Assembly: GCA_900321255.1 (NCBI GenBank)
Contig: ONVK01000001.1
Span: forward strand, 16,907 to 80,906
DNA: 64,000 bases
Direction of reading: 5' to 3'
Source: an uncultured Lentisphaerota bacterium
GTDB lineage: Bacteria; Verrucomicrobiota; Kiritimatiellia; RFP12; UBA1067
How positions within the stretch are numbered: position 1 is the first letter of the stretch; each line of letters starts with the position of its first letter. The position numbers were made by a program, and so were the translations under genes. Under the pieces are notes generated by a model that made no database searches, was not told where the DNA came from, and saw nothing but the letters and a program-made list of their open reading frames with translations. Positions 3,096 to 52,490 of this stretch are shown here, piece by piece.

Positions 3096-3713
3096 ATGAA
3101 ATTCAGAACTTCTTCCTTCAGGGCGTTTTACGTTTTACACTTTTCACTTTACGCTCTCTTCCTCGCGGGCTGCTTTGACGAGCCAGAGCCCGCGTACAAG
3201 TCGGTTCCGGAAGGCGCGCGCGTATATCTCAAGGACATGGGGCTCGCAGACCTTAAGGGGCAGTCGTTCGACGCCTCGAAGGTCGACTACCTGAACCTTG
3301 ACCGCAACGCGCTCACGAACGTCGACGAAGTGGCGTCGCTCGCGGGGCTCAAGTGGCTTCGGCTCAACTCGAACCAGCTTTCGGCGCTTCCGTCGCTTGG
3401 CGAGCTAAAGTCGCTTCGCCGCATCTACCTCAGGGACAACAAGTTCACCGAGGTGCCGGAGACGCTGAAGGACCTTCCCGCGCTTACGGACATCGACCTT
3501 TCCGGGAACCCGGTTTCGGAAATCCCCGAGTGGCTTGCGAAGAAGGAAGGGCTTCAGTTCCTCTCCTTCTCACGCACGAAGATTTCGAAGCTGCCTGACG
3601 ATCTTTCCGCATGGAAACGCCTGAAGGCGCTCCAGCTCGGCGATCTCCAGATGACTCCCGAGGAGATGTCGCGGATCCGAAAGGCGCTTCCAGATGTCGC
3701 TGTCGTCTTCTGA
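3096..3713 (+). CDS. leucine-rich-repeat lipoprotein
   Basis: Lipoprotein signal MKFRTSSFRAFYVLHFSLYALFLAGC (lipobox LAGC), followed by LRR units LxxLxLxxNxL such as LKWLRLNSNQLSALPSL and LRRIYLRDNKFTEVP. The track ORF starts at GTG 3066; ATG 3096 is preferred. Confidence 0.6.
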   Translation: MKFRTSSFRAFYVLHFSLYALFLAGCFDEPEPAYKSVPEGARVYLKDMGLADLKGQSFDASKVDYLNLDRNALTNVDEVASLAGLKWLRLNSNQLSALPSLGELKSLRRIYLRDNKFTEVPETLKDLPALTDIDLSGNPVSEIPEWLAKKEGLQFLSFSRTKISKLPDDLSAWKRLKALQLGDLQMTPEEMSRIRKALPDVAVVF

Positions 3714-5094
3714 GACGAAGGAGCTGGCGTCCGGCAAGATCGGGCGCCTTCTTTTCAGATACTCGTGGCCCGCGCTGGTCGCGATGGCGCTCAACTCGTT
3801 CTACACCGTCGTCGACCGCGCGTTTATAGGCCACGGCTGCGGCGTCGACGCGATGGCGGGACTTCAGCTCGCGATGCCGGTCGTGATGTTCCTCACGGCG
3901 TTCGGCCCGCTCATAGGCGTTGGACACGCGTCTGTGCTGTCGATCAAGCTCGGCGCGGGCGATCGCATAGCCTGCGAAAAACTGGTTGGCGAGACGGTGG
4001 CGCTCAAGATCGCGTTCTATGCCGTCCTCATTCCGCTTCTCTACGTCTTCATCGATCCTCTGCTCGCCCTCTGCGGCGCGGGCGAGGTAACGCCGGGAGC
4101 GGCGGCCGCCGCGAAGTCGTATCTCCAGATCGTCCTCTTTTCGCATATCTTCTCGCATCTCGCGTTCGGCCTTTCCGCTCTGCACCGCGCTGAGGGAGGG
4201 GCGATCCGCTCGATGATGTGCATGATCGTCGGCTTCGGCGCGAACATCGTGCTCGATCCGATTCTCATCTTCGGCTTCGGCCTCGGCGTTGCGGGCGCGG
4301 CGTGGGCGACGAACGTCGCGATGCTGCTTTCTTGCCTCTGGGCGTTTTCATACTACTGGACTGGCCGGAGCGTCGTCAGGCTCAGGCTGCGCCGCATATG
4401 GATCTACCCGCAGCTTCTCGCGCGGACGCTCTCCATCGGCCTTGCGCCGTTTCTCCAGCAGCTTATGAGCGCGGTCATCATCGCCTCTCTCCAGATTGCG
4501 TTCACGAAGTGGATGCCCGATGAGGATGCGCGTACGGCGGAGATCGCCTCTCTCGGCGTCTTCAGCAGCGCGCTAATCCTCGTCATCATGCCGATACTCG
4601 GCTGCCAGCAGGGGCTTCAGCCGATCTTCGGGTACAACTGGGGGGCGAGGAACTTCCGCCGCGTCCTCGAAACCCTCAAGACCGGTTTCCTCGTCACGAC
4701 CGTCCTCTGCGTACTGGCGTTCGTCGTTCAGGTATTGCCGCCTTTCCCGACGTGGCTTGCGAGACTCTTCGTCGACAACGCCAACGAAGACCTTGTCGCC
4801 CTGTGTGCGCACGACCTTGCGCTTTCGAACTGCATGATCTGGACGATTTCGATCAACGTCGTCGCGACGACGTACTTCCAGTCGATCGGCAAGCCGGTTG
4901 TCGCCATCGTGCTTTCCCTTCTCCGGCAGGGGCTCGTGCTTCTCCCCATCATCTGGTTCCTTCCTCATTTTCTCGACGACAAGCCGTTCGCGATATGGCT
5001 TTCAATGCCGGTTTCCGACGTCCTCTGCCAGCTTGCTACGCTCCTGCCGCTTCTCCTGCACGCGCGTTTTCTCTCCCGTGTCAGGTCACGCTGA
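3694..5094 (+). CDS. MATE family multidrug efflux transporter
   Basis: 466 aa with 12 predicted TM segments and MATE-type N-terminal and mid-protein repeats (NSFYTVVDRAFIGH, GLQLAMPV). Confidence 0.8.
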   Translation: MSLSSSETKELASGKIGRLLFRYSWPALVAMALNSFYTVVDRAFIGHGCGVDAMAGLQLAMPVVMFLTAFGPLIGVGHASVLSIKLGAGDRIACEKLVGETVALKIAFYAVLIPLLYVFIDPLLALCGAGEVTPGAAAAAKSYLQIVLFSHIFSHLAFGLSALHRAEGGAIRSMMCMIVGFGANIVLDPILIFGFGLGVAGAAWATNVAMLLSCLWAFSYYWTGRSVVRLRLRRIWIYPQLLARTLSIGLAPFLQQLMSAVIIASLQIAFTKWMPDEDARTAEIASLGVFSSALILVIMPILGCQQGLQPIFGYNWGARNFRRVLETLKTGFLVTTVLCVLAFVVQVLPPFPTWLARLFVDNANEDLVALCAHDLALSNCMIWTISINVVATTYFQSIGKPVVAIVLSLLRQGLVLLPIIWFLPHFLDDKPFAIWLSMPVSDVLCQLATLLPLLLHARFLSRVRSR

Positions 5095-5146
5095 GAAAAA
5101 AAATTCAATTACGTAATCATCGGTTACGAAATTGGCTCGAAGGTGG

Positions 5147-5155
5147 TGCTATAAT
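5147..5155 (+). promoter_or_regulatory. putative trp leader promoter (extended -10 TGCTATAAT)
   Basis: GTGCTATAAT immediately upstream of the leader peptide ORF. No clear -35. Confidence 0.4.
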
Positions 5156-5224
5156 ATGCGGCACATGAGCAAGATCCTTACCAGCAACTTTTGGTGGTGG
5201 CACTTCGTCCGCAAGGCGTGGTGA
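5156..5224 (+). CDS. trpL: trp operon leader peptide with tandem Trp codons (MRHMSKILTSNFWWWHFVRKAW)
   Basis: Short ORF just upstream of trpE containing three consecutive TGG codons at 5192-5200 and a fourth at the last codon. An intrinsic terminator follows it. If transcription starts from the -10 at 5150-5155, the second ATG at 5165 would be a leaderless start. Confidence 0.6.
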   Translation: MRHMSKILTSNFWWWHFVRKAW

Positions 5225-5250
5225 TCGGGGTCTTTGTTCAATCCCCCCTG

Positions 5251-5296
5251 AAGGCGGCCTTGCTTCTTTGTAAGTAAGGCCGCTTTCTTTTATCTT
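5251..5296 (+). terminator. trp attenuator, intrinsic terminator
   Basis: GGCGGCCTT / AAGGCCGCC stem (5253-5261 and 5276-5283) followed by TTTCTTTTATCTT. A preceding G-run/C-run (5227-5230, 5243-5248) can form an alternative antiterminator pairing. Confidence 0.55.
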
Positions 5297-5326
5297 CAAA
5301 AATGAAATCAATCACATCATAGGAGA

Positions 5327-6724
5327 ATGCAAATGCTGAAGCAACTGACAAAAGAGGAATTCGAGCGGCGATGCGCCGGCGGAAGGCGCACGCCTGTCTT
5401 CCGCGAATATCTCGCCGACCGCGAGACGCCCGTCTCCGTGCTTACCCGCATAGTCGACGAGCCGAAGGACGTCTTTCTCCTCGAAAGCGTCTACAACGGC
5501 GAGCGCAAGGGGCGCTATTCGTACCTCGGCATCGACCCGGTCGAGACGCCCGATGCAAGGCCGTTCGCCGCCGCGCCCGAGCTCCCTTCGTTCCAGGGCG
5601 GACGCGTCGGATACTTCGCCTACGAGGCGGTGTCCGACTTCGAACCGCGCGTGCCGCGCCGCAGCGAGAAGGGGACGCCGTCCGAGGCGTTCATGACGGT
5701 CGACTCGTTTGTCGTGTTCGATGCGGTGCGCGACACGGCGGTGATCGCGAAAGTCGCGGCGAACGACGCGCCAGACGCCTACGAGCGGACGATGCGCGAG
5801 ATCGAGGCGCTCAGGGAGCGGCTTCTCTCGGCAGAGTCGATCGCGCGCTACGTCGGTAGCCGCGGCAGATCCGCCGCGCCGGCGCTTTCGGCGTTCGAGC
5901 CGGAGATGACGAAGGAGGAGTTCTGCGGAATCGTCGGGCGGTGCAAGGAGGCGATCGCCGCGGGCGAGGTCATCCAGATCGTCCCCTCGCAGAAATTCAC
6001 CGCGAAGACGGATATCCCGCCGCTCGCGCTCTACCGCGCCTTGCGGCTCGTGAATCCTTCGCCCTACAACTTCTTCCTCAGGGTCGGCGCGAAGACACTG
6101 ATCGGATCGTCGCCCGAGGAGCTGGTGCGATTGGAGAAGGGCGTCTGCTCCATCGCGCCAATCGCGGGAACGCGCCCGCGCGGCGTGACGCCGGAACTCG
6201 ACCGTGCGCTCGAGGCGGAGCTCCTCGCCGACCCGAAGGAGCGCGCCGAGCACATGATGCTCGTCGATCTCGCGCGGAACGACCTTGGCCGCGTTTCGAA
6301 GACCGGCACCGTCTCGGTGCGCGACCTTGCGCATGTCGAGCGCTATTCGCACGTGATGCACATCGTGTCGAACGTCTACGGCGAGCTTGATCCCGACAAG
6401 GCCGACGCGCTCGGGCTTTTCAAGGCGGCGTTCCCGGCGGGCACGCTCACAGGTGCGCCGAAGATCCGCGCGATGGAGCTTCTCGCCGAGTACGAAAAGT
6501 CTCCGCGCGGTGTATACGGCGGCGCGGCGGGGTACTTCAGCTACACCGGCGACATGGACTTCGCGATAGTGATCCGCACGATGGTTCTCGAGGACGGCGT
6601 TCTCACGATGCGCGCCGGCGCGGGAATCGTGGCGGACTCCGATCCCGCGAAGGAGTACCAGGAGACGATAAACAAGTCGAAGGCCGTCTTCCAGGCGGCG
6701 GAGTTCGCAAAGGAGCTTGTATGA
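5327..6724 (+). CDS. trpE: anthranilate synthase component I
   Basis: LVDLARNDLGRV and GAAGYFSYTGDMDFAIVIRT chorismate-binding motifs. AGGAG at 5321-5325; the second ATG at 5333 may be the true start. Confidence 0.95.
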   Translation: MQMLKQLTKEEFERRCAGGRRTPVFREYLADRETPVSVLTRIVDEPKDVFLLESVYNGERKGRYSYLGIDPVETPDARPFAAAPELPSFQGGRVGYFAYEAVSDFEPRVPRRSEKGTPSEAFMTVDSFVVFDAVRDTAVIAKVAANDAPDAYERTMREIEALRERLLSAESIARYVGSRGRSAAPALSAFEPEMTKEEFCGIVGRCKEAIAAGEVIQIVPSQKFTAKTDIPPLALYRALRLVNPSPYNFFLRVGAKTLIGSSPEELVRLEKGVCSIAPIAGTRPRGVTPELDRALEAELLADPKERAEHMMLVDLARNDLGRVSKTGTVSVRDLAHVERYSHVMHIVSNVYGELDPDKADALGLFKAAFPAGTLTGAPKIRAMELLAEYEKSPRGVYGGAAGYFSYTGDMDFAIVIRTMVLEDGVLTMRAGAGIVADSDPAKEYQETINKSKAVFQAAEFAKELV

Positions 6725-8280
6725 CAGTCCTCATAGACAACTACGATTCGTTCACGTACAATCTCGTTCAGGCCATCGAGTCGCTCGGGATAGACGTGAG
6801 GGTCTTCCGCAACGACAAGATCGACGTCAAGGGCATCGAGGCCCTGAAGCCCGACTATCTCGTGATATCGCCAGGCCCAGGCAACCCCGACACGGCCGGC
6901 GTCTCGCTCGCCGCGGTCAAGGCGTTCGCGGGGAAGGTGCCGATCCTCGGCGTCTGCCTCGGTCACCAGACGATTGCGCAGGCGTTCGGCGGGCGGATCG
7001 TCCGCGCGAAGTCGCTTATGCACGGCAAGACGAGCCGCATACGCCACGACGGGAAGGGCGTCTTCGAGGGGCTTCTCCAGGGATTCGAGGCGATGCGCTA
7101 CCATTCGCTCGCCGTTGAGCGTTCGACTTTGCCTGAATGCCTCGAGGTCTCCGCGGAGGCGCCGGACGGCGAGATCATGGCCCTTCGCCACAGGGCTCTT
7201 CCGATAGAGTCGGTGCAGTACCACCCCGAGTCGATAGGCACGCCCGAGGGAATCGGGCAGCTGAGGAACTTCTTCGGGCTCAAGTCGAGGAGGGAGTCTC
7301 CCGCGGAGACCGTCGCCTACCACGAATTCCGCGGCATCCTCCGCGGCGACTACTCGGAGCGTGAGCTCTTCGCGCTACTCACCGACAGTCGCGAGCGTCC
7401 CGTTTCCACGGCGCGTCTCGTGGGCGCTGCGCGGGCAATGCGCGACGCGATGGGCCGCGTCGATCTCGGCTGCGACGATGCCGTCGATCTCGTCGGAACC
7501 GGCGGAGACGGGCGGCATACGATAAACATCTCCACTACCGCCGCGTTCGTCGCCGCGGGGGCGGGCGTGAAGATCGCCAAGCACGGCAATGTGGCGGCGA
7601 CGTCGAAATGCGGCGCGGCCGACGTGCTGCGCGAGCTCGGCGTCGATCTCAGCCTCCCGCCCGACGGCGTCCGCAGGTGCTTCGACGAGACGGGGATGGC
7701 GTTTCTCTTCGCCCAGCGCTACCACCCGGGCATGCGCTTCGCGGCGAACGTGCGCAGGCAGCTCGGCTTCAAGACGCTTTTCAACCTGCTCGGGCCGATC
7801 ACCAACCCCGCGGGCGTGAGCCGCCAGGCGATAGGCGTGTACGATCCAAAGCTCGTGCCGGTGGTCGCGGAGGCTCTCAAGGAGCTCGGCAGCGTGCGCG
7901 CGCTCGTCTTCTCCGGGACGGAGGGAATGGACGAAGTCGCGCCGGTCGGGTTCACCCTCGTGTCGGAGCTGAAGGAGGGCAGCATCTCCACCGGGCTTTT
8001 CAACGCCGACGCGCTTGTCCACGGGGAAAATCGCGGAGTCGAGGACCTTGCAGGCGGAGACGCGGCCGAGAACGCCGCGGTCCTTCGCGGGATTCTCTCC
8101 GGCGAGATAGGCGGCGTCAGGCGCGATGCCGTTCTCGTCAACGCGGCCGCTGCGATCGTCGCAGGCGGGAAGGCGGAGACGATGGAGGAGGGCTACAAAC
8201 TTGCCTGCGAGTCGATCGACTCGGGGCGTGCGGCCGAAAAACTAAAGGAGTTCGTGAAATGCACTTCAAGGATGCACTGA
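6721..8280 (+). CDS. trpGD: bifunctional anthranilate synthase component II (glutamine amidotransferase) / anthranilate phosphoribosyltransferase
   Basis: N-terminal GATase domain (MTVLIDNYDSFTYNLVQ, GVCLGHQ, HPES) fused to a TrpD domain (GTGGDG, NISTTAAFVAAGAG). ATGA overlap with trpE. Confidence 0.9.
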   Translation: MTVLIDNYDSFTYNLVQAIESLGIDVRVFRNDKIDVKGIEALKPDYLVISPGPGNPDTAGVSLAAVKAFAGKVPILGVCLGHQTIAQAFGGRIVRAKSLMHGKTSRIRHDGKGVFEGLLQGFEAMRYHSLAVERSTLPECLEVSAEAPDGEIMALRHRALPIESVQYHPESIGTPEGIGQLRNFFGLKSRRESPAETVAYHEFRGILRGDYSERELFALLTDSRERPVSTARLVGAARAMRDAMGRVDLGCDDAVDLVGTGGDGRHTINISTTAAFVAAGAGVKIAKHGNVAATSKCGAADVLRELGVDLSLPPDGVRRCFDETGMAFLFAQRYHPGMRFAANVRRQLGFKTLFNLLGPITNPAGVSRQAIGVYDPKLVPVVAEALKELGSVRALVFSGTEGMDEVAPVGFTLVSELKEGSISTGLFNADALVHGENRGVEDLAGGDAAENAAVLRGILSGEIGGVRRDAVLVNAAAAIVAGGKAETMEEGYKLACESIDSGRAAEKLKEFVKCTSRMH

Positions 8281-8924
8281 AGAGGGATGGAGTAAACATC
8301 ATCGCCGAGTTCAAGCGCGCGTCGCCGTCGCTTGGCGACATAGACGTCGCGGCCGATCCGGTCGCAAAGGCGAAGATATACGAATCGGGCGGAGCGGCCG
8401 CGATGTCGGTCCTCTGCGACGCCGCGCGGTTCAAGGGAAGCGTCGAGGACCTGCGGCGCGTCGCCGCGTCGGGCGCGAAGATCCCGCTTCTCGCCAAGGA
8501 CTTCATCTCGGAGAAGGAGCGTCTCCGCGAGGCGAAGGACGCGGGCGCGAGTGCGGCCCTGCTGATCGTGCGCTACCTTGACGACGAGAAGCTTTCAGAG
8601 CTTCTTGCCGAGGCGCGCTCGCTCGGGCTTGACGCGCTTGTCGAGACGCACAGCGAGGAGGAGATAAAGAGGGCGGTCGCAGTCGGCGCTGACATCATCG
8701 GCGTCAACTGCCGCGACCTTTCCAACTTCACGGTGGACGTGTCGATATCGGAGCGGCTGCTAAAGGCGATTCCGGACGGAATCGTCAAGGTCGCAGAGAG
8801 CGGCATCAAGACGAACGCCGACATCGCGCGGCTCAGGGCGGCGGGCGCGAACGCGTTCCTTATAGGAACTGCGCTTATGAAATCGCAAGACCCGGCAAAA
8901 CTGTTGTCGATTTTAACCATGTAG
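8259..8924 (+). CDS. trpC: indole-3-glycerol phosphate synthase (short form)
   Basis: NIIAEFKRASPS.G, LCDAARFKGS, and the IGVNCRDL and LIGTALMK motifs. Starts at an ATG inside the trpGD 3' end (22-nt overlap). The track ORF 7608..8924 is the same frame over-extended. Confidence 0.85.
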   Translation: MHFKDALKRDGVNIIAEFKRASPSLGDIDVAADPVAKAKIYESGGAAAMSVLCDAARFKGSVEDLRRVAASGAKIPLLAKDFISEKERLREAKDAGASAALLIVRYLDDEKLSELLAEARSLGLDALVETHSEEEIKRAVAVGADIIGVNCRDLSNFTVDVSISERLLKAIPDGIVKVAESGIKTNADIARLRAAGANAFLIGTALMKSQDPAKLLSILTM

Positions 8925-9038
8925 AACGTGTAGATCGTGTAGAAATCCTGCATGTTTCTACACGTTCTACACGGCTAATTATCTTCGACAAGAGGATTTC
9001 AATTACGACACTATTTTAAAATCGAAACGATCACAATC

Positions 9039-10235
9039 ATGAAAACGACGAAACATTATGGACCATACGGCGGACAGTACGTCGCCGAAACGCTGATGGG
9101 GCCGCTTAACGAACTTGCCGCGGCCTATCTCGAAGCGAAGGAGGACCCCGAGTTCCAGCGCGAATTCGCGGCTCTTCTCAAGGACTATGTCGGGCGCGAG
9201 TCGCCGATCACCGTCTGCAGGCGCTTGTCCGCGAAGCTCGGCGGCGCGACGATAGCCCTGAAGCGCGAGGACCTAAACCACACAGGCGCCCACAAGGTCA
9301 ACAACACGATCGGCCAGGCGCTGTTGGCTAAGCGCATGGGCAAGAAGCGGCTGATTGCGGAGACCGGCGCGGGGATGCACGGCGTCGCTACGGCGACGGT
9401 CGCCGCGCTTCTCGGAATGCCCTGCGAGGTCTACATGGGCGCGATAGACGTGAAGCGCCAGGCGCCGAATGTCGAGCGCATGAAGATGCTCGGCGCGACA
9501 GTCCACGCAATCGAGGAGGGCAGCGCGACATTGAAGGACGCGATGAACGAAGCTCTCCGCGACTGGGTCACGAACTGTGACGACACTTTCTACGTGATCG
9601 GGACGGCTGCCGGCCCCTATCCGTATCCCGAGATGGTGAAGGATTTCCAGTCCGTAATCGGACGCGAGGCGCGCCGCCAGTGCCTTGAGAAGTTCGGGCG
9701 TCTCCCCGACCAGGCGATCGCGTGCGTCGGCGGCGGGTCCAATGCCATCGGGCTCTTCGCCGGGTTCTTGGACGACGCGGGCGTAAAGCTCGTCGGCGTC
9801 GAGGCGGCTGGCAGGGGAATCGCGACGGGCGAGCACGCGGCGTCGATAAACGGCGGGCGGCTCGGCGTCCTGCACGGCGCCAAGACGATGCTGCTACAGA
9901 CAGCAGACGGCAACGTGATCGACACGTATTCCGTCTCGGCGGGTCTTGACTACCCGGGCGTCGGGCCGGAACACTGCTATCTCCACGACACGGGGCGCGC
10001 CGAATACTCGTCGATCACCGACGACGAGGCGATAGCCGCGTTCGACGACTTGTGCCGCTACGAGGGCATCATCCCCGCGCTCGAGTCGAGCCACGCGCTC
10101 GCGGAGGCGATAAAGCGCGCTCCGTCGCTTCCCAAGGAGACGATCCTCCTCGTGTGCCTCTCGGGGCGCGGCGACAAGGATCTCGAAAACATACTCGCAT
10201 ACAAGAAGAGCCGCTCTGCCGGCCAGGACATGTAA
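9039..10235 (+). CDS. trpB: tryptophan synthase beta chain
   Basis: [16 protein letters not shown] (PLP lysine), GGGSNAIG, and full-length TrpB similarity. Confidence 0.95.
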
Positions 10236-10292: not shown

Positions 10293-11033
10293 ATGAAACA
10301 GAGAATTACAGACTGCTTTGCAAAGGCCAAGTCCGAGGGGCGCGGCGCATTTGTCGCGTACATGACGATTGGCTATCCAACGCTCGAGAAAAGCGAGGCT
10401 GCCGTCGAGACGCTGATCTCGGAAGGCGCCGACATAATCGAGCTCGGCGTGCCTTTCTCCGACCCGTTTGCCGACGGCGCGGTGATACGCGCCGCCGCAT
10501 ACGAGGCGCTGCGGCAGGGAGTGACGCTGCACGACGTCATCGCGCTTGCGAAACGCGTCCGCTCGCGCCATCCAGAGACGGGACTTGTCCTCTTCTCGTA
10601 CTACAATCTTCTCTTCGCCAACGGTCTCGAGAAGTTCGCGGACGAGGCGGCAGACGCAGGGATAGACGCCGTGCTCGCGGTCGATCTGCCGCTTGAGGAG
10701 CGCGACGAACTTCTTGCGGTCCTTAGGCCGCGAGGGATGTCCTACGTTCCGCTTATCGCCCCCAACACGCCGATCGGGCGCGTAAAGGCGAGCGCGGAGG
10801 GGCTTGAGAACACGTTCCTCTACGTCATCACCGTGAAGGGCATCACTGGCGCAAGAAAGGAGCTCCCGAAGGAGCTATCCTCGCGGCTCGACGAGGTTCG
10901 CGCCGCGGTGAAGCTTCCGATCGCGGCGGGGTTCGGCATTTCCTCGAAGGAGCAGGCCGACGAGATATGCCGCCATGCCGACGGCTATATCATCGGCTCT
11001 GCACTCGTCAAGAGGTTCGGCGCTCAATCATGA
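10293..11033 (+). CDS. trpA: tryptophan synthase alpha chain
   Basis: GADIIELGVPFSDPFADG and GFGIS motifs. Confidence 0.9.
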   Translation: MKQRITDCFAKAKSEGRGAFVAYMTIGYPTLEKSEAAVETLISEGADIIELGVPFSDPFADGAVIRAAAYEALRQGVTLHDVIALAKRVRSRHPETGLVLFSYYNLLFANGLEKFADEAADAGIDAVLAVDLPLEERDELLAVLRPRGMSYVPLIAPNTPIGRVKASAEGLENTFLYVITVKGITGARKELPKELSSRLDEVRAAVKLPIAAGFGISSKEQADEICRHADGYIIGSALVKRFGAQS

Positions 11034-11623: not shown

Positions 11624-11848
11624 TGTATGATCTTTCAGACAGGATTAAGTGATTATGTTTTAGACAGGATTAACAAGATTAACAGGATTAAGAATTTTAG
11701 AATGGAGAACAGGAGATACAGGAGTTTTTGGAGGCGCCTTCGGCGCGGGGTCTGGGGTGCAACCCCAGTCTCCCTCCTGCCTCTCCTGTCCTACCTGCCA
11801 AAATCCTGTTAATCCTGTAAATCCTGTCAAAAAAAAGAAAGGTTAAAA

Positions 11849-50859: not shown

Positions 50860-52490
50860 TTGTGAAGATGCTCCATCTCGACCTCGTGTGCCTCGCGGCG
50901 GAAAAGGACAAGACGCTGACGCAGCTTCGCGACCTCGGCGCGGTCCATCTCGATCTTTCCTCCGCGCAGGGCGCCACCGTGGCCGCGGCGAAGGGCGAGG
51001 CGGCGGACGCCGAAAAGGCCGTCAGGCTGATCCTCAAGGCGAGGGGCAAGGCGAAGGACGTGAACATCCACGAGCGTTCGGTCGCTGACATTCTCGCAAT
51101 CGACGCGGATCGCGAGTCTCTCAGGTCCGACAAGGACGAGCTTGAGCGCGAAATCCGCGTCTACGAGCCGTATGGAGACTTCGATCCCGAGCTCGCGGAG
51201 AAACTCCTCGGGGAGGTGGAAGGTCTTCGCGACGTGGTGCCGCTTCCGGAGACCCTGCCGTCCATGAGTCTTTCGAAGATGCGCGAGAAGCTCGAACGCA
51301 TCGAGAACTGCATAGTCGTCGACGAGGCGAAGCTCGCCGGCAGCGACGAGAAGGCGATCCTGAAGAAGTATCCTGCTCTTGCCGACAAGATCGCGTTCGA
51401 GTCGGCCAAGGAGCTCGTCGGCGAACAGGGAGAGCTCGCATATGTCTCGGGCTGGATTCCGGAGCCCGCGCGCGGCACATTTGCCGCGGCCGTCCATGAG
51501 AATGGCTGGGGTGCGCTCCTGCGCGAGCCCGCTGACGGTGAGCTGCCGCCGACCCTGATAGAACCGCCGAAGATGTTCCGCCCGATGAAGGCGCTTTTCT
51601 CGGGGCTCGGCATCGCGCCCGCATACACCGAGGCGGACGTGTCGGTTCCGTTCATGTGCTATTTCTCGCTCTTCTTCGCGATGCTCGTGGGCGACGGCGC
51701 GTACGGCGCGATTTTCCTCGCCGCCACGCTCGCGCTGAGGAAGAAGCTCCCGAAGAGCTGGTTCATACTCCTGACGGTCTTCTCCTCCGCGACGGTTCTG
51801 TGGGGGATTCTCTCGAACACGTGGTTCGGCGCGGGGATCTCCTGGTGCGTGGACTGGCCTACGGTTAAGTGGCTGGCGGATCCGAGCTACCACAACATGA
51901 TGCTCCTCTGCTTCACGATTGGCGTGTCGCACCTGATGCTCGCCCGCGTCTGGAACGGCATTTGCCGTGCGCCGGATTCGACGTGCATAGCGGAGTTTGG
52001 CTGGGCTGGTATACTGCTCTTCATGTATCTCGTCACGAACTCGATCGTCGGCATATTCCCCGGAATCCCGCAGTGGGGCTTCTGGGTGCTCGGCGTGTCC
52101 GTCGTCGCGGTGTTCGGCTTCTCCGTGAAGCCGTCTGAGCTGAAGACGCGCGGCGCGGAGCTGGGGATGCTGCCGCTGAACATCATGAGCGCGCTCGGCG
52201 ACATAATATCTTACGTCCGTCTCTTCGCAGTCGGTCTCGCGTCCGTCAAGGTAGCGGAGAACTTCAACTCGATGGCGACCGGGCTCCTCTCGTCCGACAA
52301 CGCGCTTTGGCTCAACGCGCTCATGTGCGTCGCGATGGTGGCGATACTCATCGTGGGTCACACCTTGAACCTCGCGATGGCGGGCCTGTCGATCCTTGTG
52401 CACGCCGTGCGTCTGAACACCCTCGAATTTTCAAACCACAAGGGCGTGTCCTGGTCGGGATATGCTTTCAATCCGTTCAAAAAAAACTAA
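50856..52490 (+). CDS. atpI: V-type ATP synthase subunit I (a)
   Basis: Soluble N-terminal half plus a C-terminal 7-8 TM half with the conserved Arg region (RLFAVGLAS). ATGA overlap with subunit D. Confidence 0.8.
   Translation: MIVKMLHLDLVCLAAEKDKTLTQLRDLGAVHLDLSSAQGATVAAAKGEAADAEKAVRLILKARGKAKDVNIHERSVADILAIDADRESLRSDKDELEREIRVYEPYGDFDPELAEKLLGEVEGLRDVVPLPETLPSMSLSKMREKLERIENCIVVDEAKLAGSDEKAILKKYPALADKIAFESAKELVGEQGELAYVSGWIPEPARGTFAAAVHENGWGALLREPADGELPPTLIEPPKMFRPMKALFSGLGIAPAYTEADVSVPFMCYFSLFFAMLVGDGAYGAIFLAATLALRKKLPKSWFILLTVFSSATVLWGILSNTWFGAGISWCVDWPTVKWLADPSYHNMMLLCFTIGVSHLMLARVWNGICRAPDSTCIAEFGWAGILLFMYLVTNSIVGIFPGIPQWGFWVLGVSVVAVFGFSVKPSELKTRGAELGMLPLNIMSALGDIISYVRLFAVGLASVKVAENFNSMATGLLSSDNALWLNALMCVAMVAILIVGHTLNLAMAGLSILVHAVRLNTLEFSNHKGVSWSGYAFNPFKKN

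Follow-up and report, generated by a model that had tools for sequence, protein, structure and literature searches.

A probable ribosome-mediated tryptophan attenuator upstream of the trp operon in an uncultured Kiritimatiellia bacterium and its relatives

We analysed a stretch of 64,000 nucleotides (nt) of contig ONVK01000001.1, from an uncultured bacterium of the Kiritimatiellia (this whole stretch is hereafter the window), and focused on the leader region of the tryptophan biosynthesis gene trpE. The region is a 230-nt stretch of lower G+C content that separates a MATE transporter gene (3694–5094, on the same strand) from trpE, and the leader element in it lies directly upstream of a complete trp operon, trpE-trpGD-trpC-trpB-trpA-trpF. 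We conclude that a ribosome-mediated leader-peptide transcription attenuator very probably controls this trpE-GD-C-B-A-F operon. A first-pass annotation, made from the sequence alone, had proposed a trp attenuator with a leader peptide upstream of trpE, and that proposal is now backed by gene content, by conservation in 50 of 63 related loci, by covariation of the RNA helices and by ribosome-masked folding. The parts of the element are as follows; all lie on the forward (+) strand, apart from a palindrome to which no strand is assigned.

5113–5127, no strand: palindrome GTAAT-CATCG-GTTAC (consensus GTAWY-N5-RWTAC), a candidate transcription-factor site
5147–5155, +: extended −10 promoter element, TGCTATAAT, of which TGnTAnnnT is kept across relatives
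5165–5224, +: leader open reading frame (ORF) in its revised extent, 19 codons plus UGA, with the peptide MSKILTSNFWWWHFVRKAW
5166–5177, +: 5′ strand of a long-range helix (P0) that pairs the 5′ part of the ORF with the post-stop region 5227–5240
5192–5200, +: three tandem Trp (UGG) regulatory codons, read directly from the sequence
5201–5223, +: 1:2 hairpin (anti-antiterminator), with segment 1 at 5201–5210 and segment 2 at 5214–5223
5211–5221, +: 5′ strand of the antiterminator, at the end of the ORF, which pairs with the terminator 5′ arm
5225–5251, +: G-run/C-run hairpin (UCGGGG...CCCCUGA), nested in the antiterminator; its base is the first 2 nt of the terminator stem
5250–5298, +: intrinsic terminator, with a stem of 16 base pairs (bp; 5250–5265/5272–5287), a 6-nt loop and a U-rich run

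As first described, the leader ORF ran from ATG 5156 to the TGA at 5222–5224 and read MRHMSKILTSNFWWWHFVRKAW, a total of 22 codons. The three consecutive Trp codons of that description are present, and a fourth (TGG, 5219–5221) stands at the C-terminal end of the ORF, where the RNA helices seem to account for it; the start codon, however, has to be moved. In the closest relatives, position 5156 holds TTG (L098 and L115), GTG (L001), CTG (L081) or ACA (L082), whereas ATG 5165 is invariant in all close relatives, and because of this difference leader translation most likely starts at 5165, which shortens the ORF to 19 codons. ATG 5156 immediately abuts the conserved TGnTATAAT box. The gap between the stop codon and the terminator stem, previously given as 27 nt, was counted as 25 nt. 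Across relatives, the C-termini of the leader peptides are kept within clades (KAW, EAR and PCGFGFA), and the peptides of different clades are completely unlike.

Searches based on TrpE retrieved 160 loci, the closest of which are Kiritimatiellia metagenome-assembled genomes (MAGs) and gut or rumen metagenome contigs, with TrpE identities of up to 97%. The 'high-GC anaerobe' of the first-pass annotation is accordingly a gut or rumen bacterium of the Kiritimatiellia, in the PVC group. We scanned the 300 nt upstream of each trpE with a detector that looks for a short ORF with at least two Trp codons in three and, within ~115 nt, a hairpin of −10 kcal/mol or better with a T-run. Of the 63 distinct loci in which TrpE identity is 58% or more, the detector scored 50, as opposed to none of 63 reverse-complement controls, and WW or WWW stands at the same relative place in these 50 loci. 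Twelve of 75 more distant loci, including Victivallales/Lentisphaerota, were also scored (controls, 0 of 75), and on both strands of the 64-kb window the detector returned only the trp leader and one weak unrelated match. Four of the unscored relatives (L019, L031, L089 and L106) have a Trp-rich ORF, but failed the terminator or start-codon criteria of the detector. In L003, L035, L004 and L005 the sequence upstream of the element is unrelated to that of the window, from which it follows that the element belongs to trpE and not to the MATE gene.

Two further observations came from the retrieved loci. Trp-rich short ORFs followed by terminators also occur upstream of trpE in distant loci of scattered origin, L061, L064, L065, L068, L073, L080 and L158; the first six come from lineages of the Deltaproteobacteria, Chlorobiaceae, Ignavibacteriota, Brevinematales, Thermoanaerobaculaceae and Gaiellales, and L158 is a metagenome contig. 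In L002 (uncultured bacterium RUG12612, TrpE 89% identical; 2860–2970 of the locus), ~100 nt are absent, either as a natural variant or as an assembly artefact. What is missing runs from the MATE stop codon through palindrome and promoter into the leader ORF, of which the first half is gone; the terminator is kept, so that the MATE frame extends into the terminator 5′ arm and stops in the loop; translation of this extended frame might alone disrupt the terminator.

The terminator stem of the window comprises 16 pairs (8 of them G–C) followed by TTTTATCTTC, has a predicted energy of −25.9 kcal/mol and was the sole site found in a terminator scan. The strong terminator of the first-pass annotation is thus in place, but its 9-bp GC stem is only the core of the 16-bp stem; the placement ~30 nt upstream of trpE holds, with the end of the U-run measured at ~30–35 nt from the gene. 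The leader region of 161 nt folds at −65.6 kcal/mol (z = −5.1), which none of 200 shuffles equalled. The 1:2 hairpin begins 1 nt after the last tandem Trp codon, and its segment 1 falls within the computed footprint of a ribosome stalled on the Trp codons. The P0 helix is predicted in the minimum-free-energy folds, with a core register common to relatives at 5184–5187/5234–5237.

To compare these helices within the clade of the window (clade I), we aligned 18 leaders (alignment A1) and counted pairs for pre-specified structures. The terminator (columns 101–117/125–141, window positions 5250–5266/5271–5287) is paired in 89.8% of cells, and 8 of its 17 pairs change on both sides; for the 1:2 hairpin (columns 37–46/50–59) the values are 88.3% and 4 of 10. 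The core of P0 (columns 20–23/71–74) is almost always paired and the entire helix is 66% paired, with pairing kept through changed bases in the close relatives L081, L082 and L115. Jointly, the termination-state helices pair in 83% of cells, compared with 39–49% when the partners are slid, and they beat all 500 shuffles on four of five measures.

The predicted antiterminator joins the end of the ORF to the terminator 5′ arm. Its best register in the window is 5211–5217/5257–5263 (GCAAGGC/GCCUUGC) and the register common to relatives is 5213–5221/5258–5266 (A1 columns 49–57/109–117), which is 85.8% paired in A1, as opposed to 38–65% with the partner slid. The first-pass annotation had placed the alternative pairing in a G-run (5227–5230) and a C-run (5243–5248). 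Both runs are present, but alone they cover only 2 nt of the terminator 5′ arm, and with this 2-nt overlap of the stem we rejected the G-run/C-run hairpin as the main antiterminator; the main strand is 5211–5221. The hairpin itself is kept, as UCAGGG(A)...CCCCUGA, in L081, L082 and L115.

A sister clade (clade II; alignment A2, 20 sequences) differs strongly from clade I in nucleotide sequence, yet the predicted switch logic is the same. Here the putative antiterminator is clearly supported by covariation: it is 93.1% paired, four pairs change on both sides, and none of 500 shuffles equalled it in paired fraction or in covariation score. Pairing amounts to 97.9% in the 1:2 hairpin, where 4 of 7 pairs are changed on both sides, and to 88.6% in the terminator. 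Across 27 loci, the ORF segment that follows the Trp codons is complementary to the terminator 5′ arm of the same locus, with a mean z of −1.43 and several values below −3. Clade II leader peptides, for example ...WWWPCGFGFA... (L021, L027, L092, L095, L103, L105, L110 and others), share ...WWWPCGFGFAGR..., and because the residues that are kept are encoded by the strands of the 1:2 hairpin and the antiterminator (UGCGGAUUCGGUUUCGCA), their conservation appears to be imposed by RNA structure and not by the function of the peptide.

The start of the leader transcript was located by comparison of relatives. A two-hexamer scan for sigma-70 promoters found none at the leader, because the −35 box is absent and the promoter becomes visible only when relatives are compared. 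In ~30 of 52 loci, 7–10 nt (most often 9 nt) separate the end of the −10 box from the leader ATG; in the window the spacing to ATG 5165 is 9 nt and the leader ORF has no Shine–Dalgarno sequence. The spacing would put the transcription start 0–3 nt before the AUG, and in the window at ~5162–5163. Because the conserved extended −10 box sits 9 nt upstream of ATG 5165, the leader peptide is probably translated from a leaderless mRNA, as has been reported for the trpEGD leader peptide of Deinococcus deserti (PMC4007540). Some more distant relatives clearly have 5′ untranslated regions of 19–38 nt with GGAG-like motifs, and more distant relatives carry a TTGAC −35 box and no palindrome. In the window, TGnTAnnnT-N7-9-ATG also precedes the genes for a deaminase (1756), an FHA protein (16021), a 3-keto-disaccharide hydrolase family protein (36174) and V-ATPase subunit D (50251); a fifth ATG with this spacing, at 52023, is probably internal to a V-ATPase I gene. 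This distribution suggests that leaderless mRNAs may be common in the source organism.

A ribosome was represented by a 27-nt mask when the window RNA was folded. With no ribosome, and before the terminator 3′ arm is made, P0 and the 1:2 hairpin fold together (−32.6 kcal/mol) and leave the 5′ arm of the terminator with no upstream partner, so that the terminator would form. With the mask placed so that any of the three UGG codons is in the A site, the minimum-free-energy structure is the antiterminator (−21.9 kcal/mol), a composite of 5211–5217/5257–5263, 5221–5222/5254–5255 and 5225–5230/5246–5251. Folding was where the first-pass annotation had expected terminator and antiterminator hairpins to alternate, and the antiterminator is indeed predicted under the stalled-ribosome mask. 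Across 51 loci, the stalled mask raised the sequestered fraction of the arm in 33 and lowered it in 2.

In the switch that we infer, transcription would start a few nucleotides past TGCTATAAT, giving an RNA with its 5′ end 2–3 nt before AUG 5165, and a ribosome would load on this leaderless AUG with no Shine–Dalgarno sequence. When charged tRNA-Trp is scarce, the ribosome would stall at UGG-UGG-UGG (5192–5200), with its footprint over segment 1 (5201–5210). Segment 2 (~5211–5221) would then be freed to pair with the terminator 5′ arm (5257–5266), with the G-run/C-run hairpin (5225–5251) nested inside; the antiterminator so formed would block the terminator, and RNA polymerase would continue into trpE. 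When tryptophan is plentiful, the ribosome would reach the UGA at 5222–5224 and cover segment 2, or would depart and allow the 1:2 hairpin and P0 to refold. The 5′ arm would be left free, the 16-bp terminator (5250–5287) and its U-run would form, and transcription would end.

Several results weigh against this reading or limit what supports it. In masked full-length folds the terminator (−25.9 kcal/mol) beats the antiterminator (−21.9 kcal/mol) in every state, and because it wins at equilibrium the switch would have to be kinetic, as in Escherichia coli. With the ribosome on the stop codon, the truncated RNA can pair the 5′ part of the ORF (5167–5177) with the terminator arm; because the stop-parked RNA also sequesters the arm, equilibrium folding alone does not show termination under replete tryptophan. 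Family-wide, sequestration of the arm is higher in the stalled state than at the stop in 22 loci and lower in 8, so that equilibrium masked folding separates a stalled ribosome from no ribosome but does not cleanly separate a stalled ribosome from one at the stop. The A1 columns of the antiterminator are almost invariant, and because they hardly vary covariation cannot establish this helix in the clade of the window, where the pairing is only consistent with an antiterminator. The duplex between segment 2 and the 5′ arm in the window (−15.3 kcal/mol) is not above dinucleotide shuffles (z = −0.43), and the same test is non-significant in several close relatives; we prefer the positional and covariation tests because G+C-rich arms pair well with G+C-rich shuffles. 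Thirteen of the 63 relatives were not scored by the detector; in some of them the element has been lost or trpE is an internal gene of an operon. A cmscan search of 4900–5500 against Rfam, at E values of up to 10, found no Trp_leader (RF00513), T-box or riboswitch, and gave only four chance-level matches to unrelated families.

Other readings differ from the proposed attenuator in where the ribosome starts, in what the hairpin serves or in how tryptophan is sensed. The same attenuator might have a conventional leader, transcribed from a promoter further upstream, in which AAGGTGG (5140–5146) recruits the ribosome to ATG 5156 and the 22-codon ORF is read. The window does contain that ATG, preceded at 9 nt by a GGTGG motif, and the longer untranslated regions of some distant relatives are of this kind; however, position 5156 is not ATG in the closest relatives, in which GGTGG degrades to GTTGG, GTAGT and ATAGT, and the overlapping TGnTATAAT box is kept, at a constant 9 nt before ATG 5165, with an equal box-to-ATG spacing before other genes of the window. 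We regard a conventional leader as unlikely. Much less credible still is that the hairpin is a constitutive terminator or insulator for the upstream MATE transcript and the Trp-rich ORF a chance frame. Although the hairpin does lie downstream of the end of the MATE gene (5094), on the same strand, a promoter lies between that gene and the leader ORF, ORF and terminator accompany trpE in relatives with unrelated upstream sequence, 50 of 63 loci but none of the 63 controls have the tandem Trp codons, and the helices that link ORF and terminator covary; the chance that this reading is correct is close to nil.

TRAP, T-box and riboswitch systems, too, act in the end through a choice between terminator and antiterminator structures, and tryptophan might accordingly be sensed here by a trans-acting factor: a TRAP-like protein, a T-box-like contact with uncharged tRNA or a riboswitch. 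Against this stand the absence of any matching Rfam family at E values of up to 10 and of a (G/U)AG triplet array on inspection of the leader sequence. The clades have in common an in-frame AUG, the tandem UGG codons and a stop, with the other nucleotides free to change, and because only these are kept we favour a translated sensor and consider trans-acting sensing very improbable. A different possibility is that the released attenuator RNA or the 19-amino-acid peptide also acts in trans, like rnTrpL and peTrpL of Sinorhizobium. There is precedent for this (PMC6614838, PMC7298713), and the C-termini of the peptides are kept within clades, but the stretches of peptide that are kept map exactly onto helices 1:2 and 2:3 and are explained by constraint on the RNA, and the peptides differ wholly between clades. 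An additional role in trans is therefore improbable in our view, if somewhat less so than trans-acting sensing.

The ribosome-mediated attenuator that we favour resembles trpL of E. coli in having a short ORF with tandem Trp codons, a four-segment logic of 1:2, 2:3 and 3:4 pairing and a terminator just upstream of trpE, and in that termination is favoured by a ribosome at the stop codon or by no ribosome. It differs from trpL in several respects. The window leader has no sequence or covariance-model similarity to trpL; it has three tandem Trp codons and one C-terminal Trp codon; it lacks a Shine–Dalgarno sequence and is probably leaderless; and it adds the P0 long-range helix and the nested G-run/C-run hairpin. 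The ORF itself contains segment 2, ahead of the stop codon, and for this reason a terminating ribosome would sit on segment 2. The host belongs to the PVC (Planctomycetes–Verrucomicrobia–Chlamydiae) group and not to the Gammaproteobacteria. The description 'E. coli-type' in the first-pass annotation accordingly fits the mechanism but not family membership, with Rfam Trp_leader and the curated leader-peptide families unmatched. Pfam and NCBIfam, including Leader_Trp, gave no match at E values of up to 10 for the peptide of the window or those of two relatives, and the search of Rfam that had been suggested as a check matched no leader family; at gathering thresholds, Rfam found only a transfer-messenger RNA (tmRNA) and tRNAs in the whole window.

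Classical attenuation has been documented in Proteobacteria, Actinobacteria and Deinococcus (PMC1262725, PMC4007540, PMC6614838). Deinococcus deserti has leaderless leader-peptide attenuators at trpEGD and 13 others (PMC4007540), a trpE leader peptide has been reported in Corynebacterium glutamicum (PMC3890552), classical attenuation is known in Actinobacteria (PMC1262725) and mycobacteria have leaderless poly-Cys attenuator ORFs (bioRxiv 10.1101/834739). The window leader shares with these systems regulatory codons that match the end product of the operon and, probably, a leader peptide made from an mRNA with its 5′ end at, or a few nucleotides from, the start codon. In Deinococcus and Actinobacteria, however, the transcription starts have been mapped, in another phylum and in unrelated sequences, whereas the leaderless start in the window is deduced from promoter spacing only. 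The trpL/rnTrpL element of Sinorhizobium meliloti is likewise a ribosome-dependent Trp attenuator upstream of trpE(G), and documented roles in trans exist for its attenuator RNA rnTrpL and its peptide (PMC6614838). In the searchable literature we found no paper on trp attenuation in Kiritimatiellota or Verrucomicrobia, and no amino-acid-biosynthesis regulatory RNA described for Kiritimatiellota or Lentisphaerota.

The palindrome upstream of the promoter points to a second element at the leader. It ends 22 nt upstream of the −10 box, with its centre near −42, and occupies the position of the −35 box. GTAWY-N5-RWTAC occurs once in the window, compared with 0.08 occurrences expected, and once each in 11 of the 160 fetched loci, always at the same position upstream of the trp leader. 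In these 11 relatives the spacing from palindrome to box is fixed while the sequence between them varies freely; L013 has an N4 variant of the palindrome, displaced by 1 nt. A centre near −42 is typical of sites for class II activators. A class II activator and a repressor overlapping the −35 region would be equally possible as the factor acting at the palindrome. This arrangement suggests that, in the clade of the window, the trp leader may be under an additional layer of control based on a transcription factor. We therefore put forward, as a tentative proposal that we hold at less than even confidence, that a widespread and uncatalogued family of Trp attenuators exists in Kiritimatiellota and Lentisphaerota, with many members leaderless, and that the clade of the window adds a palindrome-bound and possibly Trp-responsive factor. 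If this is true, attenuation and the palindrome factor would form a circuit of two tiers, like that of TrpR and attenuation in E. coli but made of unrelated parts.

The genes of the operon were identified by NCBIfam matches and all lie on the forward strand.

5327 or 5333–6724, +: trpE, the first regulated gene
6721–8280, +: trpGD, a trpG-trpD fusion
to 8924, +: trpC
9039–10235, +: trpB
10293–11033, +: trpA
to 11623, +: trpF, with pheA next

The start of trpE is more likely to be ATG 5333 (MLKQLT...) than ATG 5327: a GGAG at 5321–5324 is 8 nt from the former and only 2 nt from the latter, and trpE of relatives starts at an MLK equivalent to 5333. A second attenuator was sought between trpC and trpB and was not found; the hairpin there has no U-run and no Trp-rich ORF accompanies it. 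This hairpin (8917–8973; −35.2 kcal/mol, z = −10.4) overlaps the trpC stop codon and is made of tandem TGTAGAnCG repeats and inverted copies of them, and it could be an mRNA-stabilizing, processing or repetitive extragenic palindromic (REP)-like element within the operon. Nor was a Phe-type leader found upstream of pheA (11624–11848), where there is no Phe-rich ORF and only a long inverted repeat. The repeat lies between trpF and pheA (11640–11832), is imperfect and ~190 nt long, with arms of repeated (C)AGGATTAA(C/G) units and a G+C-rich centre, and may be a miniature inverted-repeat transposable element, a REP-like element or a large RNA structure. At the start of the window, a tRNA (166–237) directly precedes the tmRNA gene (266–618; 174 bits), and the permuted-tmRNA model gives an overlapping match of lower score at 187–388.

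The mechanism proposed here is a textbook one; its newness is that it is uncatalogued in the phylum, and the conceptual gain is small. It would extend ribosome-mediated Trp attenuation to Kiritimatiellota and Lentisphaerota, PVC bacteria of gut and rumen that are almost entirely uncultured. With ~50 sequences from several covarying clades, a new Rfam family could be seeded and MAG annotation improved, and there is evidence within the sequence for leaderless mRNAs in this lineage, a regulatory leader peptide included. For these organisms, such an attenuator implies that they make their own tryptophan and tune synthesis to supply, which would be relevant to models of gut and rumen metabolism.

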